Shown in pieces: positions 46,756 through 64,000 of a stretch of 64,000 nucleotides of DNA (positions are counted from its first letter, which is position 1; the number at the start of each line of letters is the position of its first letter). The DNA comes from Candidatus Xenobia bacterium (lineage in GTDB: Bacteria; Vulcanimicrobiota; Xenobia; Xenobiales; QWHO01), in contig BTUM01000035.1 in NCBI GenBank assembly GCA_045863235.1, positions 12,019 to 76,018 of the forward strand, in the 5' to 3' direction. The position numbers were made by a program, and so were the translations under genes. The notes under the pieces were generated by a model. It saw only the letters and a program-made list of their open reading frames with translations. It searched no databases and was not told where the DNA came from.

Positions 46756-49407
46756 GTGGCTTTGTCTGACGACAACCGGATTGGAAATGGTCGAGGCTCC
46801 GAGCGCTCTGAGCGCTCGGAGCGCTCGCGCGGGTCCCGGTCGGCCAGGGAGAACGGCCGGGCCGAACGGACCACCGGCTCCACCGTTCCCAACATGCGCA
46901 GCCTCTTCTTCCATGATGCCGACCGGATGATGGTGCTTCAGGATGCGCGCACCTCCAATCAGGAGATCTTCCAGGGCTGGAGCCGAGCTGCGGGTGATGA
47001 GAACCGAGGCCCCGGGCGCTCCGAAGACGCTCCCGGACAGAATCGGGGGGCGGGCCGCTCAGACGACGATCGGGGGGAGAATCGGGGCCCGGGACGCTCA
47101 GACGACCGCGGGGAGAATCGGGGCCCGGGACGCTCGGAAGACGCCCCCGGCCAGAATCGGGGGCCCGGACGGTCCGACGACGACCGGGGCGAAAATCGAG
47201 GGCCGAGCCGCTCAGACGACCGGGGCCCGGGCCGCTCCGAGGAGGCGCCCGGTCAGAATCGGGCGCCCAATCGCCCGGATAGCGACGACCGTGGGTCGAG
47301 GCGCTCGGAGGACGACCGGGGTGAAAATCGAGGACCCAACCGCTCGGATGACGACAGGGGCGCACGCCGAACTGACGAGAGCCGCCAGACTCGCCGAACC
47401 GAGGAGAGCGAGCGGCGCGAGCCGCCCGGTCAGGCCAAGAAGAACGATGAGTCTCGCCGCGAGGAGAACCGTCTGCGCACCGATGGTCCCGGCCACAGCG
47501 AGGATGCACCGGGGCAGGCCCGCAAGCGAGAGGGCCCGGAGGAGCGCAGTTCGCTGATGGAGCGGATCCGTGAGGCCATGCGCAAAGAGGAGACCCGCCG
47601 CCAGGAGCCGGCAGAGCCGGCCCGGCGCGACCCTCCCCAGAACCAGCAAAGCGAGCCCCGGCGACCGGCCCAGGCCCAACCCGAGCCACCGCGTAAGGCC
47701 CCCCTCCCGGCTCAGCCCGAGCCCCCGCGCAAGCAGCCCGCGGCCGAGACGATGCGCCGCCCGCCCGACGAGCCCGTGCGCAAGATTCCGGTCGTGGTCT
47801 CGGCTCCGGTCCATCAGCCCGTGCGCAAGCCCGAGACCCAGGCGGGTGCTGCTGTCCCCGAGCAGCCCACGCCGACCCCTCCTCAACCGGCCTCGCGAGC
47901 ACTCTACAAGCGGCTCGACGCGCCCCCCCGGCTGCCCGAGCAGAGTACCGCGCCGACCGCCCGGGTGAATTCGCCGCAGGTTCCACAGGAGAGCCGCCTG
48001 CCGACCCCCCAGGCACGTCTCCCCGAGCTGCCGCGAGCCCCCCGGGGCGAGCAGCCGATGACGCCCGCCCCCACACCCGCGGTGCGGGCCGATCGGCCGG
48101 CACCGCAGCGGGTGGATCCGGCGCCTTCGCACGCGACCGTGGTCTCGCGCAGCTCGGCCGAAGGGGCGGGCACCCAGAGCGGCGGCCAGCAGGAGTCCGA
48201 GGGTCGGGCGCGGCCCACTGAGATCGCTCGGCTCTCAGCCCCGGTCGTGCGTGAGAATCGCTTGCTGAGTCGTTTCCTGCTGCCGGGCCGGGCCGAGCTC
48301 GAGGAAGAGCTGGAGGCTCTCAAGAACTCCCCCCGCGTCGAGTCGATCAGCAAGCGCAACCGCGGCGGCCAGGGTGGGGGAGGGGGGCAGCAGTCCTCGG
48401 GTCAGTCCGCCGGCCAGGCCTCCGGGGGGCCGGCGGCCGAAGTGGGCCTGGAGGTGGTCGATCCGCACACAGGCCTGCCCAGAATGTTGATCCGTCCGGG
48501 CCTGCAGCCGATTTTGCCTCAGCTCGAGCAGCTCTTTTCCACGGCCGGTCTGGCCTATGCCGCTGACACTGAGGATACGCCAGAGTTCATGCGCTCCTAC
48601 TGGATCGCCATGGCCTGGCTCAGCCAGCATCAAGAACAGCACGGCTTGAACGAGCGGATGTGCTACTTCGGCGCGGCCATGTTCGAGGGGATGCAGGGTT
48701 GGCGCCGCAAGGGCCAGGTCAGCGAAGAGCAGGTGGTCAACCGGCTGCTGGCCATGCTGGCCGAGGAGGGGGGCTTTCTTGGCGAGCACTCGCTGCGGGT
48801 CATGACCTTCGCCGACGCTGTCTGCGAAGACCTGAACGTCCAGGACCCGGCCATCCGCGAGCAGGTTCGCTCGGGAGCCCTGCTGCGCGATCTGGGCATG
48901 GCGGGGCTGGATTACCGACAGCTTCCCCCGATGCTCTCCGAGCAGTTCAACGGACTTCGAAGCTCCGGAGACCTGCACATGGCCGGTCGCCTGGCGGATA
49001 TTGGAGCTCTGCGCGTGCCGGCCGAGATCCGCAACAAACCCGGGCCTCTGAATGCCGAGGAGCGGGCTCTGATGGAGAAGCATCCCGAATTTGGTGAGCA
49101 GTTCCTGGCCCGCTTTCCGCCCTTCCGCCACCTGGGCCCCATCGTGCGGGCTCATCATGAGCGCTGGGACGGGCGGGGATACCCGGACGGACTGATGGGT
49201 CGGCGCATCCCCATGGCCGCGCGCATCATCGCCGTTTCGGATGTCTTCGACGCCCTCACCAGCGAGCGCCCCTGGCGTGAAGCCTGGAGCTACGAGCGCG
49301 CGGTCAGTGCCATCCAGGAGGGGGCGGGTACCCAGTTCGACCCGGAGGTGGTCCGGGCATTCCTGAGAACGAGCCGCCGCCTGAAGGCGGGCGGATACCT
49401 CGACTGA
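46756..49407 (+). CDS. HD-GYP domain protein (degenerate HD) with repetitive disordered N-terminus
   Basis: EHSLRV, KHPEFG, HHERWDGRGYPDGL, IIAVSDVFDALTSERP; extended -10 TGCTATAAT upstream. Confidence 0.82.
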   Translation: MALSDDNRIGNGRGSERSERSERSRGSRSARENGRAERTTGSTVPNMRSLFFHDADRMMVLQDARTSNQEIFQGWSRAAGDENRGPGRSEDAPGQNRGAGRSDDDRGENRGPGRSDDRGENRGPGRSEDAPGQNRGPGRSDDDRGENRGPSRSDDRGPGRSEEAPGQNRAPNRPDSDDRGSRRSEDDRGENRGPNRSDDDRGARRTDESRQTRRTEESERREPPGQAKKNDESRREENRLRTDGPGHSEDAPGQARKREGPEERSSLMERIREAMRKEETRRQEPAEPARRDPPQNQQSEPRRPAQAQPEPPRKAPLPAQPEPPRKQPAAETMRRPPDEPVRKIPVVVSAPVHQPVRKPETQAGAAVPEQPTPTPPQPASRALYKRLDAPPRLPEQSTAPTARVNSPQVPQESRLPTPQARLPELPRAPRGEQPMTPAPTPAVRADRPAPQRVDPAPSHATVVSRSSAEGAGTQSGGQQESEGRARPTEIARLSAPVVRENRLLSRFLLPGRAELEEELEALKNSPRVESISKRNRGGQGGGGGQQSSGQSAGQASGGPAAEVGLEVVDPHTGLPRMLIRPGLQPILPQLEQLFSTAGLAYAADTEDTPEFMRSYWIAMAWLSQHQEQHGLNERMCYFGAAMFEGMQGWRRKGQVSEEQVVNRLLAMLAEEGGFLGEHSLRVMTFADAVCEDLNVQDPAIREQVRSGALLRDLGMAGLDYRQLPPMLSEQFNGLRSSGDLHMAGRLADIGALRVPAEIRNKPGPLNAEERALMEKHPEFGEQFLARFPPFRHLGPIVRAHHERWDGRGYPDGLMGRRIPMAARIIAVSDVFDALTSERPWREAWSYERAVSAIQEGAGTQFDPEVVRAFLRTSRRLKAGGYLD
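46996..47360 (+). repeat. Intragenic tandem repeat (about 10 units, NRGPGRS-type)
   Basis: In-frame degenerate units, mostly 36-39 bp. Confidence 0.85.
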
Positions 49408-54929: not shown

Positions 54930-55958
54930 ATGAATCCAGAAGTCCGTTTCCGGGTCCCACCCCACGTCTACGAGCTGGCCGAGCGACGCAGCGACGAGTT
55001 GGGTCTGTCGGGCTCGAAGGGGCGGTCGGGAGGGGTATCCGAGCTGGCCAGGGCCGGACTCTATCTGCTTTTGAACCTGCCTCTACCGGCCGACGCTCAC
55101 TGGCTGCAGTCTCAGCGCTTCGATGACGTGCGGCTGGCCCGGCGCGCCCTGACGGGGGATGAAGCGCGCATCGGCCTGCGGCTGCTCCACCGGGTCGACC
55201 CCGAGGTGCGCCGCCAGGCGGCCCTGGAGCGGGGCCAGGCCATCGCCTCCATGGCCACCACACGATTCGAGTTTGAGCCAGGCGAAGTTCCCGCGGAGCT
55301 TTCTTCCTGGTTTCAGTTGACCGAGAGCGGTTTACCGGTCGGGGAGATCGATCTGTCAGGCGGGCCCCTGGCGGTGGGAGCGCTGGTTTCGGCCGCGCCC
55401 GAAGCCACCTTGACCGAGCTGCTCCAGGCCGTGGGTCAGCTCAACCAGAAGAAGGCTTCCGATCAAGAGCGCCGCCGTCAGCGCGAAATGCAGCGAGAGA
55501 AGGGCCAGCGCGAGCTGTCCGATTGGGTGGCCGAGCACGGCTCCGCCCACGCTCGAGCCTTACTCGAGGAGGGTTTCGACTGGCTCGACCGGGCCGAGCG
55601 CGAATATGGAGCCTGGCGGCTGCAGGCGCTCGGCGTGGGCGGAGTGACGGCTCTGAATGGGTCGCAGTCCCTGGCCGCGGCCCACGAGTCCCCCCGGCTG
55701 GTAGCCGTGTCCGAGCCCGGGCTCGAGAGCATCGAACGGCTGCGCTCGATCCGCGCGCGAGTTTCCGGTCAACCCGGCCTGAAGGCGTCCCTGGTCTGTC
55801 GACAGGACGATCTCGAGGAGCTGGTGCTCATCGAGGTGGCCGTGCCGACTGGCAACACGGTGCAGTTTCTCTCTCCCGGCCAGCCCGCCACCCCCCTTCG
55901 GAAAGCGGCCCGCCCGGCTGCGGGACGGCCCAGAATGCAATCCTTGCGAGGTGACTGA
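54930..55958 (+). CDS. Hypothetical protein with RHH-like N-terminal DNA-binding region
   Basis: EVRFRVPP (beta strand), HVYELAERRSDELG (helix A), VSELARAGL (helix B); coiled coil in the middle. Confidence 0.6.
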   Translation: MNPEVRFRVPPHVYELAERRSDELGLSGSKGRSGGVSELARAGLYLLLNLPLPADAHWLQSQRFDDVRLARRALTGDEARIGLRLLHRVDPEVRRQAALERGQAIASMATTRFEFEPGEVPAELSSWFQLTESGLPVGEIDLSGGPLAVGALVSAAPEATLTELLQAVGQLNQKKASDQERRRQREMQREKGQRELSDWVAEHGSAHARALLEEGFDWLDRAEREYGAWRLQALGVGGVTALNGSQSLAAAHESPRLVAVSEPGLESIERLRSIRARVSGQPGLKASLVCRQDDLEELVLIEVAVPTGNTVQFLSPGQPATPLRKAARPAAGRPRMQSLRGD

Positions 55959-55960
55959 AG

Positions 55961-56254
55961 ATGGCTTATCGTCCCTGCCGGTTTCGAGGCTCGGTCCTGG
56001 GGGTGTTCCAGTGCGAGAAGCACCTTTATCAGCACAGCTATCCTGAGATCTACAACGAGCTCTACGAGTTCTGTCTCGAAAACGTGCCTGACCGCTTCTG
56101 CGACTACGTCGACTTCGGTTTCTCGCTCGAGGGCGAGACGCCTCGGATTTTCATCAACTGCACCCATCCCTACCAGTCACGCCCGCTCAAGAGCTTCCGC
56201 GACTGCATGGAGGAGTGCGACTACTATGACAAGGAGCGCGAGTCGCTGGGATAA
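55961..56254 (+). CDS. Small Cys/aromatic-rich hypothetical protein
   Basis: GAGGTG RBS, 2 nt after the upstream stop; 7 Cys in 97 aa. Confidence 0.7.
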   Translation: MAYRPCRFRGSVLGVFQCEKHLYQHSYPEIYNELYEFCLENVPDRFCDYVDFGFSLEGETPRIFINCTHPYQSRPLKSFRDCMEECDYYDKERESLG

Positions 56255-56284
56255 TCCACTGAGCGTTCCGTGATGAATGCACCT

Positions 56285-56317
56285 CAAACACAGAAGCCAT
56301 CCTGTCTCCAGGATGGC
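56285..56317 (-). terminator. Rho-independent terminator
   Basis: Minus strand GCCAUCCUG-GAGA-CAGGAUGGC-UUCUGUGUUU. Confidence 0.75.
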
Positions 56318-56563
56318 CTCGCGATCTGGCTCCCACCTCACCAGACTCCCCTGACTTCACCGACCTCGGGCGCGAACCGTGTTCGCTATCGGGCGCGCTC
56401 GTGGCGTGCCTACCCCTCACGGGACCCGCTCGGCTGTCAGGCCTTCCTCGCATGTTCTCCCAGGCGAAGTGCTGGGGCGTGCTCTGGTCTGCGCGCTACC
56501 CCTCGAGGTCTCGGTATCCTCGAGTCCGCCGCGATGTCGCTCGCGGAGCGGTCGGCCGGCGAC
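56285..56563 (-). ncRNA. Candidate structured ncRNA (~280 nt), family unknown
   Basis: Own TTGACA-18-TAATAT promoter, several hairpins, terminator with GAGA loop and U-rich tail; no credible ORF. Confidence 0.55.
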
Positions 56564-56569
56564 AGGCGC

Positions 56570-56599
56570 ATATTACCTTTTAACACGCTCGCCTGTCAA
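56570..56599 (-). promoter_or_regulatory. Sigma70 promoter of the candidate ncRNA
   Basis: Minus strand TTGACA (56599-94), 18 bp, TAATAT (56575-70). Confidence 0.7.
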
Positions 56600-56621
56600 C
56601 CCGCGAACAGAAGATCGAGAG

Positions 56622-56912
56622 TCAGGCCTCCCGTTTGCGCTCCGGCTCGTTCTTCTTGAACATCTCGCCCAGTTTGCGCAGCTTGGCGTCTTCGCGCAGT
56701 TTCTCCTCGGCGGGATAGATGCAGGAAACCTGGGCCAGGCGGACCAGGATGTCGACGGGTTGTTCGGATTCCTCGGAAAACGAGCGGATCAGAGCATAGT
56801 AGTCGTCAAAGTCGAGGATCCGCCCTTCCAGGCAATCAAAGCAGAGGTAGGTGCCCTCTGCCTGGTGATACTCCAGGAAGGCAGCCAGAACCGGGGACTT
56901 CCGTCGTTTCAT
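56622..56912 (-). CDS. Small hypothetical protein with CxxC (96 aa)
   Basis: GAGGAG RBS, ATG 56912; YLCFDCLEG. Confidence 0.7.
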   Translation of the reverse strand: MKRRKSPVLAAFLEYHQAEGTYLCFDCLEGRILDFDDYYALIRSFSEESEQPVDILVRLAQVSCIYPAEEKLREDAKLRKLGEMFKKNEPERKREA

Positions 56913-57025
56913 GGGGTTCTCCTCAGAGTGGGGCGGAGCGTTACCGCCCTGAGATTGCCGCGGGCGCGGCACTTCGTGGTCACGTACAAGCGCGTGAGCG
57001 CTTTCTGGGGGGCTACCACGTTGTC

Positions 57026-57054
57026 AGAGTATCACAATCTCCCTACCCTGTCAA
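57026..57054 (-). promoter_or_regulatory. Sigma70 promoter with extended -10
   Basis: TTGACA (57054-49), 17 bp, TG-n-TACTCT (57031-26). Confidence 0.7.
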
Positions 57055-62355: not shown

Positions 62356-64000
62356 TGAGCGCAGGCTGGTGGCGAGGGGTTCTCTGGCTCCTGCTGGTGG
62401 GGCTGGGGCTGTATGTCTTCACGCGCATTACCAGTACCCTGACCGTTTTCGGGCTGGGCTTCGTGATCGCATATCTCCTGAATTCCCCGGTGGAGAAGAT
62501 CACCGGCCAGAAGCTCGGGCCCATCAAGAGCCTGAGCCGGGGACAGGCCATCCTGGTTGTCTACCTTTTCCTGTTTGCCTTGTTGACAGGCGGAGGGTTC
62601 CTGATCATCCCGCTGGCTATCGAGCAGACCCAGGAGATGGTGCGCGAGGCCCCCGAGATGGTGGCCCGCATCCAGACCAAGGCTCTCGAGCTTCAGGAGC
62701 GCTACATCCACAGCGTTCCGCCCTCGGTACGCAGCAGCGTCGAATCGACCATCGCCGGCAGCGCCGACCGTTTCGGCTCCATGCTGGGCACGGTATTGAG
62801 CTTCCTGGCCTCAGCCGTGCTGGACCTGGTGGGCAAGATCTTCCTGCTGCTGACCGGCCTCCTGGTCGCGCTGTATTTCTTGTTGAACTGGCAGGGTCTC
62901 TTTGACGCCGCGCTGGGGCTGGTGCCGCGAAAATACAAGGATGATGCTCGCAGCCTGACCTTGCAGATGAACCGCATCTTCGGCGGCTACATCCGAGCCA
63001 CCATCGTGGCCAGCTCGGCTTGCGGGGTGCTGACCTTCGTTCTGCTCATGCTGCTGACCGGCTGGCATCCGAACCCCTACACCCTGTTGCTGGCTTTGCT
63101 GGCAGCGCTGACCTATCCCATTCCCGTCGTGGGTGCGGCGGGAACCTGCGTGCTGGGCGGGGTGCTGGCCTTTTTGTCCACCGGGGACCTGGGTTACGCG
63201 GTGGTGGTGCTGCTGGTCATCATGGGCGCCAATCAGGGGGTTGACCGCACCATCTATCCCAAGCTGATGGGAGACGCCATCGGGGTCTCGCCGATGTTCA
63301 TCCTGTTTGCCGCCTTTGCGGGCGGTGAGTTCCTGGGGACCACCGGAATGCTGCTGGGCATTCCGCTGGCGGCCATGACCAAGGCCCTGCTGACCTGGGT
63401 TCACGCGCGCTTCCTGGTGGTGCCGGAAGAGCAGCAGAAGCAAAGCACCGAAGAACTCTGGGCCCGGGCGCCCGCCAAGGCTGGCCAGGCTACCCCTGCT
63501 GCGAGGGAAGTCTGGGATGACGCTGCTTCACAGACCGTCAAGCCCGGTGGCTCGGCTGAAGCCACCACCTCCGCGAGCCAGCCCGCCAGCCGGGTTATCG
63601 AGCCGGTCGGCCAGGCGGGTGCAGCCAGCCCGGGCGCCGTCGAGCAAGCCGGCGCTGCAGCCCCGGCGAGCGCAGCCGTCCTGAGCGTCGAGCAAGCCGG
63701 TCAGGCGCGCGCGCCCGTCGAGCAGGCCGGCACCGCAGCCCCGGCGAGCGCAGCTGTCCTGAGCGTCGAGCAAGCCGGCCAGGCGGGCGCAGCCGTCGAG
63801 CAGGCCGGCACCGCAGCCCCGGCGGGCGCAGCCGGCCCGACCACCGTCGAGCAGGTCGGCACGGCAGCCCCGGCGAGCGCAGCCGGCCCGAGCGCCGTCG
63901 AGCAGGCCGGCACCGCAGTTCCGGCGGGCGCAGCCGGCCCGAGCACCGTCGAGCAGGCCGGCACCGCTGCCCCGGCGGGCTCAGCCGGCCCGGGCGCCGT
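62352..64000 (+). CDS. AI-2E (PerM/YhhT) family membrane protein with long Ala-rich repeat tail (3' truncated)
   Basis: Not in the ORF track (no stop before the edge). Manual translation: IAYLLNSPV, FGGYIRA, YPIPVVG, IYPKLMGDAIG, GMLLGIPLAA. Confidence 0.82.
   Translation, partial: MMSAGWWRGVLWLLLVGLGLYVFTRITSTLTVFGLGFVIAYLLNSPVEKITGQKLGPIKSLSRGQAILVVYLFLFALLTGGGFLIIPLAIEQTQEMVREAPEMVARIQTKALELQERYIHSVPPSVRSSVESTIAGSADRFGSMLGTVLSFLASAVLDLVGKIFLLLTGLLVALYFLLNWQGLFDAALGLVPRKYKDDARSLTLQMNRIFGGYIRATIVASSACGVLTFVLLMLLTGWHPNPYTLLLALLAALTYPIPVVGAAGTCVLGGVLAFLSTGDLGYAVVVLLVIMGANQGVDRTIYPKLMGDAIGVSPMFILFAAFAGGEFLGTTGMLLGIPLAAMTKALLTWVHARFLVVPEEQQKQSTEELWARAPAKAGQATPAAREVWDDAASQTVKPGGSAEATTSASQPASRVIEPVGQAGAASPGAVEQAGAAAPASAAVLSVEQAGQARAPVEQAGTAAPASAAVLSVEQAGQAGAAVEQAGTAAPAGAAGPTTVEQVGTAAPASAAGPSAVEQAGTAVPAGAAGPSTVEQAGTAAPAGSAGPGA
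63635..64000 (+). repeat. Intragenic tandem repeat, VEQAGTAAPAGAAGPST-type (51-bp units)
   Basis: Recurrent GTCGAGCA(G/A)GCCGG core, in frame with the AI-2E gene. Confidence 0.85.

Follow-up and report, generated by a model that had tools for sequence, protein, structure and literature searches.

A natural monomer of an uncatalogued RNA family with predicted triple-pseudoknot modules in Vulcanimicrobiota

We describe a gene on the minus strand of the window (the whole 64,000-nucleotide stretch analysed here) that is the natural monomer, or single-module member, of an uncatalogued modular triple-pseudoknot RNA family. That this locus is a genuine non-coding RNA gene is close to certain. The autonomous gene would give an RNA of ~280 nt, consisting of one module in which three H-type pseudoknots in a row are predicted. 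Measured against Rfam and the literature searched, the architecture is new: a module of three knots in series that is multiplied both in tandem and over eight genes. A new, independently transcribed structured RNA had been proposed here by the first-pass annotation, and this proposal is supported by the promoter, RNA contigs, covariation and an inverted cassette in the related genome G004. Our preferred reading of its role, to which we give slightly less than an even chance, is that the RNA works in trans, as a scaffold or decoy: its central pseudoknot would bind a single abundant ligand, which is most likely a protein.

Gene structure and predicted fold

The features of the gene and its immediate neighbours are as follows.

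56622..56912, minus strand: upstream 96-aa gene, predicted Hfq/Sm fold (structure model and profiles); candidate partner, outside the family unit
56594..56599, minus strand: -35 hexamer TTGACA (promoter search; unchanged in 5/5 orthologues)
56570..56575, minus strand: -10 hexamer TAATAT, then a GC-rich stretch (promoter search; G004 reads TAGTAT)
56286..56563, minus strand: predicted non-coding RNA of ~280 nt, one module (ends inferred from promoter and terminator; family model scores 76 bits at 56436-56529)
56551..56563, minus strand: 5' hairpin (pairing check); most other family genes open with related leaders
56529..56546, minus strand: leader hairpin H2 (orthologue comparison and pairing check)
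56502..56528, minus strand: predicted pseudoknot A, CGG 56528-56526 with CCG 56514-56512 in the P1 loop (P1 56524-56518 / 56508-56502)
56477..56501, minus strand: predicted pseudoknot B, the sequence-invariant core, GG 56501-56500 with CC 56487-56486 in the P2 loop
56496-56491 / 56482-56477, minus strand: P2 helix of pseudoknot B, with a single C-A mismatch
56446..56476, minus strand: predicted pseudoknot C, P3 56476-56472 / 56463-56459, loop 56469-56464 with 56451-56446
56350..56441, minus strand: 3' domain, with long-range P4 (56441-56436 / 56355-56350), P5 and P6
56423-56414 (GUGA tetraloop) and 56386-56372, minus strand: 3'-domain hairpins (covariation, orthologues, pairing check)
56325..56345, minus strand: hairpin P9 with a G-rich loop (family module comparison)
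56283..56320, minus strand: intrinsic terminator and U-rich tail (compensatory change U-A to C-G in G004)
55961..56254, plus strand: conserved 97-aa gene, convergent neighbour (homologue search)

The TTGACA-18-TAATAT promoter reported at first pass was confirmed at 56599-56570 of the minus strand, where promoter-type sites occur at 2 per 5 kb against 0.5 in shuffles. The reported terminator was also recovered, as a hairpin of 12 pairs (56320-56293) with a GAGA loop and a U-rich tail; terminator-type sites alone are at chance level (4 versus 3.1 in shuffles). The transcription start at 56563 is a prediction, and RNA contigs in the promoter region extend upstream to 56592, 56965, 57008 or 57011. 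Minus-strand folding of the 281-nt stretch gave a z of -2.53, equalled by 0/200 shuffles, and plus-strand folding a z of -1.67, equalled by 7/200.

All of the stems in the earlier structure listing pair as claimed, and what that listing overlooked were the three pseudoknots and the membership of a multi-copy family. Both copies of a repeated 9-mer that it pointed out are present; the first alone belongs to the family core, the second overlapping the GUGA tetraloop hairpin and varying among paralogues.

A search for homologues and covariation, suggested as a check at first pass, bore the fold out. From 283 non-redundant modules we aligned 202 cores with few gaps, and the top 17 covarying pairs were all model pairs, falling in P1, P2, P3 and pseudoknots B and C. 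Modules had been selected by an anchor pattern and P1 pairing, other helices not being required, so that the support for P1 is partly circular. In 29 full modules, on one of which the 48-pair structure had been drawn, the proposed pairs were paired in 80.5% of cases against 70.5% when shuffled, with double-sided changes at 35 of the 48; neither measure was matched in 500 shuffles. A three-orthologue alignment held eight pairs with double-sided changes. The outer pair of pseudoknot B was G-C in 263 of the 283 modules, A-U in 17, G-U in 1 and A-C in 2, and this compact H-type knot has near-invariant residues and an invariant G-A opposition.

Pseudoknot A was recognised as a third knot because the linker before P1 varies in step with the P1 loop: CGC accompanies GCG in 37/37 modules, GGC accompanies GCC in 88/91 and CGG accompanies CCG in 41/44. 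At least three pairs could form in 248/255 modules, compared with 126 +/- 6 in shuffles (0/2000) and 91-115 with the linker slid, and in 175/182 unique combinations compared with 86 +/- 5; relatedness of the modules inflates these tests, the effect being nevertheless large. The idea that the P1 loop pairs with the GG that follows pseudoknot C was not above shuffles (262/2000, the loop extraction having included stem bases) and was dropped, as pseudoknot A covariation shows the true loop partner to be the 5' linker. Covariation of all three knots leads us to read the 5' half, across more than 200 modules, as a predicted series of three H-type pseudoknots, followed in order by a long-range helix enclosing the GNRA hairpin, the G-rich hairpin and the terminator.

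Expression

A 1.2-kb stretch around the gene was present wholly or partly in 23 of the 24 runs listed, 18 of them recorded as RNA, from 16 studies. RNA-seq contigs lay over the gene in all four runs examined (four studies); these contigs, which carry no strand, end or level information, span 56330-56592, 56360-56965, 56332-57011 and 56333-57008. Three of them end within 4 nt of one another, just short of the terminator. Depth over the RNA exceeded that over the upstream gene in two runs (10 versus 3; 17-34 versus 6). Read-through from the upstream gene is likely in the present orientation, since three of the four runs join the RNA to that gene in one contig. Positions 55900-56309 were uncovered in the four RNA runs, which does not prove the 97-aa gene to be silent. 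By eye, a TTGACA-17-TACTCT pattern, kept in G004, lies upstream of the 96-aa gene (57026-57054, minus strand), and the RNA contigs ending at 57008-57011 fall near the start predicted from it.

Independence from the neighbouring genes

The RNA gene lies at the same place in all five genomes of the genus. G004 (83% identical) has the cassette between the 96-aa and 97-aa genes too, but turned round as a whole, promoter, RNA and terminator together. Its promoter comes after the 97-aa stop codon and its terminator adjoins that of the 96-aa gene, whereas the other four genomes have the opposite order. At the sequence level this is a clean inversion between two convergent genes (L012 1450-1800). The inversion indicates that the RNA is autonomous, and is not a UTR, riboswitch or cis antitoxin. 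A cis riboswitch was rejected, as there is no regulated same-strand downstream gene and the neighbour is convergent in both orientations of the cassette. The next ORF, at 36 other loci (some fetched twice), is on the opposite strand in 22, on the same strand in 13 and absent in one.

The suggestion at first pass that the RNA might be an antitoxin for the adjacent small proteins was not upheld: complementarity is at chance, the cassette is inverted in G004 and neighbours differ among family loci. The longest antisense matches were 7, 8 and 11 nt against shuffle means of 8.5, 8.6 and 9.5, those to either neighbour gene being 7-8 nt against 8.5. No Pfam family was common to the 20 ORFs around other family loci of this genome (G000), and in other genomes, where 43 of 60 flanking frames were scanned, just two families recurred as best match, twice each. 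An antitoxin or antisense role towards one of the small proteins nearby, or a coding role through the overlapping 88-aa ORF, we regard as very improbable and as largely refuted in cis. A promoter, tandem pseudoknot repeats and a terminator at the family level do resemble type III antitoxins, going by the accessible part of PMC8860590, but no same-strand ORF follows the terminator at the present locus. The 88-codon ORF is not conserved, its ATG being lost in G004, and its base usage is non-coding (0.60/0.72/0.54, versus 0.55/0.36/0.80 for the 97-aa gene).

With its predicted Hfq/Sm fold, which Pfam misses, the 96-aa protein would be a second and divergent protein of that kind; it carries a C-terminal helix. 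Of the matches that Foldseek listed for its model (a helix and five strands, pLDDT 72), nearly all were to Hfq, the best with E 0.015 and probability 1.0, and its profile matches SmE at E 0.008; compared profile to profile with Hfq, it scored weakly (probability 0.8%, E 0.065). The protein is 99-100% identical across the genus, adjacent to the RNA in 5/5 of its genomes and patchy in the phylum. It occurs in 5 of 21 RNA-bearing genomes and in seven RNA-free ones. All 16 f2 genomes searched, 15 of them RNA-bearing, gave no match to it; this, together with its presence in RNA-free genomes, makes it at most a local partner. In several RNA-free genomes the homologue is followed by a structured-looking gap and then a membrane-protein gene. 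The 97-aa protein is conserved and Cys/Tyr-rich, with 21 homologues and no family match, and the ORF preceding its gene (342 aa) likewise belongs to no known family. PADLOC gave no match for either flanking ORF, and NCBIfam no significant one.

A modular family and its distribution

Related stretches were first found by similarity search, and a covariance model of a 93-position core, built from 47 sequences, was then applied at E<=1e-4. It detected 27 modules on nine contigs of G000; an additional match at E 0.06 was treated as chance. We count the nine contigs as eight transcription units because C111 and C13 both end within a single array, which G001 shows unbroken. Two units consist of one module only, namely the present gene and the C12 locus. 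A sigma-70 promoter pattern precedes six of the eight, and a terminator-like hairpin closes every one.

Among 60 relatives, the model matched 4/4 genomes of the same family, 15/16 of f2 and 1/1 of f5, with 0/19 in f3 and 0/3 in f4. A phylum-wide draw matched in 21 of 151 genomes, counting G000 and one false match: in G056, of another class, the match was rejected as it sits within a long protein-coding frame, which we take to be dehydrogenase-like. In the genomes searched, the family is confined to large-genome members of one Vulcanimicrobiota class. An exact 19-letter motif was found in 38 GTDB stretches, with module context in 32; the remaining six, and metagenome stretch L158, were set aside since module context is absent. 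Record labels of the GTDB stretches read Vulcanimicrobiota, Eremiobacterota, Xenobia or 'bacterium', and another group in 11, at least one of which is identical to sequence from a genome of the same order (L062 and L013). A metagenome scan gave at least 134 stretches (~430 estimated); among the matches listed, as many as 11 modules lie within 2.6 kb. One metagenome contig (L127 1-2604) carries 11 full modules of ~255 nt; every one of them has an internal loop rich in purines, possibly a motif for tertiary docking. Viral, phage and plasmid collections yielded no genuine family match, five viral-contig matches being rejected as they have no score with the family model.

The number of modules per transcript ranges from one to at least 14. 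The larger number comes from a paralogous locus of G004 (L027 1100-2250), where 14 cores were matched and 11 consecutive spacings are only 59-70 nt. These mini-repeats keep pseudoknot B, the next hairpin (P3) and an A-rich linker, and are without the GNRA hairpin, 3' domain and P9, while orthologues of the array have 106-112-nt repeats that retain knot A as well. Because the 59-70-nt repeats keep that knot, the amplified unit is the invariant pseudoknot B. Full module, 106-112-nt repeat and 59-70-nt repeat thus form a natural deletion series that points to the functional site. The L027 array looks like that of a type III antitoxin from which the toxin is missing. Two contig ends of G000 (C13:123500-123816 and C111:1-200; L072, L077) carry exact 106-nt tandem copies, probably a collapsed array, and a phage-integrase gene lies ~2 kb from the terminator of that array.

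Comparison with known RNA classes

Rfam 15, named at first pass as the check on novelty, gave 0 matches in the window at gathering score and none over the element at E<=10; 12 and 8 other family loci gave weak unrelated matches only. A Lambda thermometer match (56874-56925) was discounted, being far below cut-off and outside the element. The earlier failure to match the RNA by eye to tmRNA, RNase P or SRP RNA proved sound, as G000 has its own copies of these on other contigs and ARAGORN finds nothing in the window. The RNA is not 6S RNA (RF00013) either, the sole G000 match to which is sub-threshold and on another contig (C34:8852-9026, minus strand, 35.5 bits); this is a candidate 6S RNA.

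Array members share with type III antitoxins (ToxI) a promoter, tandem pseudoknot repeats and a terminator, the antitoxin repeat being a protein-binding site according to the text available from PMC8860590. Relative to the antitoxins described there, modules of the present family are 60-260 nt with up to three knots. There is also no toxin ORF after the terminator, the ORF being convergent here and in G004, and the family comprises eight unlinked genes per genome, some single-module. A search for ToxN-family nucleases had no match in the genome, control genomes likewise matching none. ROOL and GOLLD are, like this family, ornate multi-pseudoknot bacterial RNAs of unknown function (PMC12286853, in the sections available), whereas the present RNAs have no Rfam match, phage association or tRNA genes (none in 43/43 family loci) and are built from repeated modules. 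The raiA motif has a similar unit size, a compact pseudoknotted core, variable peripheral stems and unknown function, and holds two knots inside a conserved closing P1 with a P3/P4/PK1/PK2 core (PMC12968392, as far as its accessible text goes). Our module, in contrast, has three predicted knots in series, occurs in tandem and at many loci, and has no Rfam match. Stand-alone multi-copy RNAs with repeated binding sites are also known as CsrB/RsmZ and CrcZ, and the GGA-rich P9 loop is a further likeness; these sponges use short single-stranded motifs and not a conserved tertiary core, CsrA was not detected in G000, and ARN repeats are not enriched in the family. Three consecutive H-type pseudoknots able to stack make up the upstream pseudoknot domain of tobamoviruses, a cis-acting element of the viral 3' UTR; the likeness lies in the three-knot series, and we claim no sequence relation. 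We found no description of the family in the literature, although the supplement catalogues of PMC8040213, PMC11109978 and PMC5737381 or subscription papers could contain one.

Discussion

In the decoy or scaffold reading, pseudoknot B would be the binding site for one ligand, because it is sequence-invariant and is retained when repeats shrink to 59-70 nt. Repetition of the site would set binding capacity, at 1 to 14 per transcript and 27 in the genome, by analogy with type III antitoxins and Csr sponges. The protein sponge suggested at first pass remains the best guess, though not one for CsrA, which was not found in G000 (97.6% complete) and is encoded in 6 of 21 RNA-bearing genomes. This reading has against it that no candidate partner tracks the family, whether CsrA, Ro60, the 96-aa Sm-fold protein or Hfq, and that buried invariant nucleotides would suit a small-molecule pocket or catalytic core equally. 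Ro60 (TROVE) was not found in G000-G004, for which reason an identity as Y RNA was rejected, and is encoded in 2/21 RNA-bearing genomes; Hfq is present in 20/21, but also in most RNA-free genomes. RRM proteins were not found in the genus, and when 2964 small ORFs were clustered, inspection of the 45 largest clusters by eye revealed no expanded family of RNA-binding proteins.

Alternatively, Hfq or the Hfq-fold protein encoded next to the RNA could have it as a client, in which case it would be a sponge for Hfq or form a dedicated ribonucleoprotein of the Sm type. RydC offers a precedent for a pseudoknotted sRNA bound to Hfq (PMC4337610, PMC3985669, in the parts available), and the upstream protein, with its predicted Hfq fold, shares a contig with the RNA in three of four runs and sits beside it throughout the genus. 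We nevertheless hold this to be improbable given the distribution of that protein in f2, the lack of a module near its homologues in six other loci, the convergence of the two genes in G004, and A-rich ARN repeats that were not above shuffles in 9/10 transcripts (the other being borderline, 10/200). The P9 loops, one per module, contain GGA in 92/136 unique loops compared with 64 +/- 5 in shuffles. With the Shine-Dalgarno motif as reference, matches of at least 5 nt occur in 43/136 unique loops against 28 +/- 4, so that the RNA might dock 30S subunits through its G-rich P9 loop; there is very little probability in this, since plain GGA is the more enriched, the loops are mutually related, no start codon follows P9 in the present RNA and the mini-repeats have no P9.

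Pseudoknot B may instead be a small-molecule or metal pocket, the RNA serving as a trans-acting aptamer buffer, or a catalytic core. Compact H-type knots are typical of several riboswitch aptamers, and the near-invariant residues and G-A opposition would fit such a site. We think this distinctly unlikely, as the mixed orientation of next ORFs at the 36 loci reveals no regulated gene, while efficient self-cleavage is weakly opposed by contigs that cross the core unbroken in 3/4 runs. Self-assembly of the RNA alone is a further, unlikely reading, in which modules would dock through tetraloops, purine-rich loops or swapped pseudoknot strands into a cage or filament, arrays being covalently linked subunits and the present RNA a free monomer. 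Natural RNAs do form cages and filaments (PMC12286853; 10.64898/2026.07.01.735769, both in the portions accessible). The conserved GNRA hairpin, the purine-rich loops and the near-identical pseudoknot C strands of neighbouring modules in some arrays are consistent with assembly, but the mini-repeats have neither the GNRA hairpin nor the 3' domain, and the wide variation in module length and number is a poor fit to a regular particle.

More speculatively, and less likely than not, this may be a new class of bacterial RNA that evolves like a repeat protein, its three-pseudoknot unit duplicated within and between genes and building a multivalent particle. Such a particle could be a polymer of RNA alone, or consist of beads with an Sm-fold ring capping each one, and the present gene would then be a natural monomer beside a dedicated Hfq-fold protein. 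Ornate abundant bacterial RNAs such as ROOL, GOLLD and raiA pose a standing open question because their function is known to nobody; for probing such an RNA, solving its structure or pulling down partners, the natural one-module gene is the simplest construct.

Other features of the window and genome

Elsewhere in the window, an 883-aa ORF (46756-49407, plus strand) has low-complexity N-terminal repeats and, by eye, an HD-GYP-like C-terminus, with two GGDEF-type genes and a PilZ gene nearby. The stretch at 63500-64000 is GC-rich and repetitive, and its frames translate to imperfect repeats. In the genome at large, an identical sequence of ~50 nt stands at four contig ends (C94, C101, C135 and C140) and is likely an unassembled repeat.
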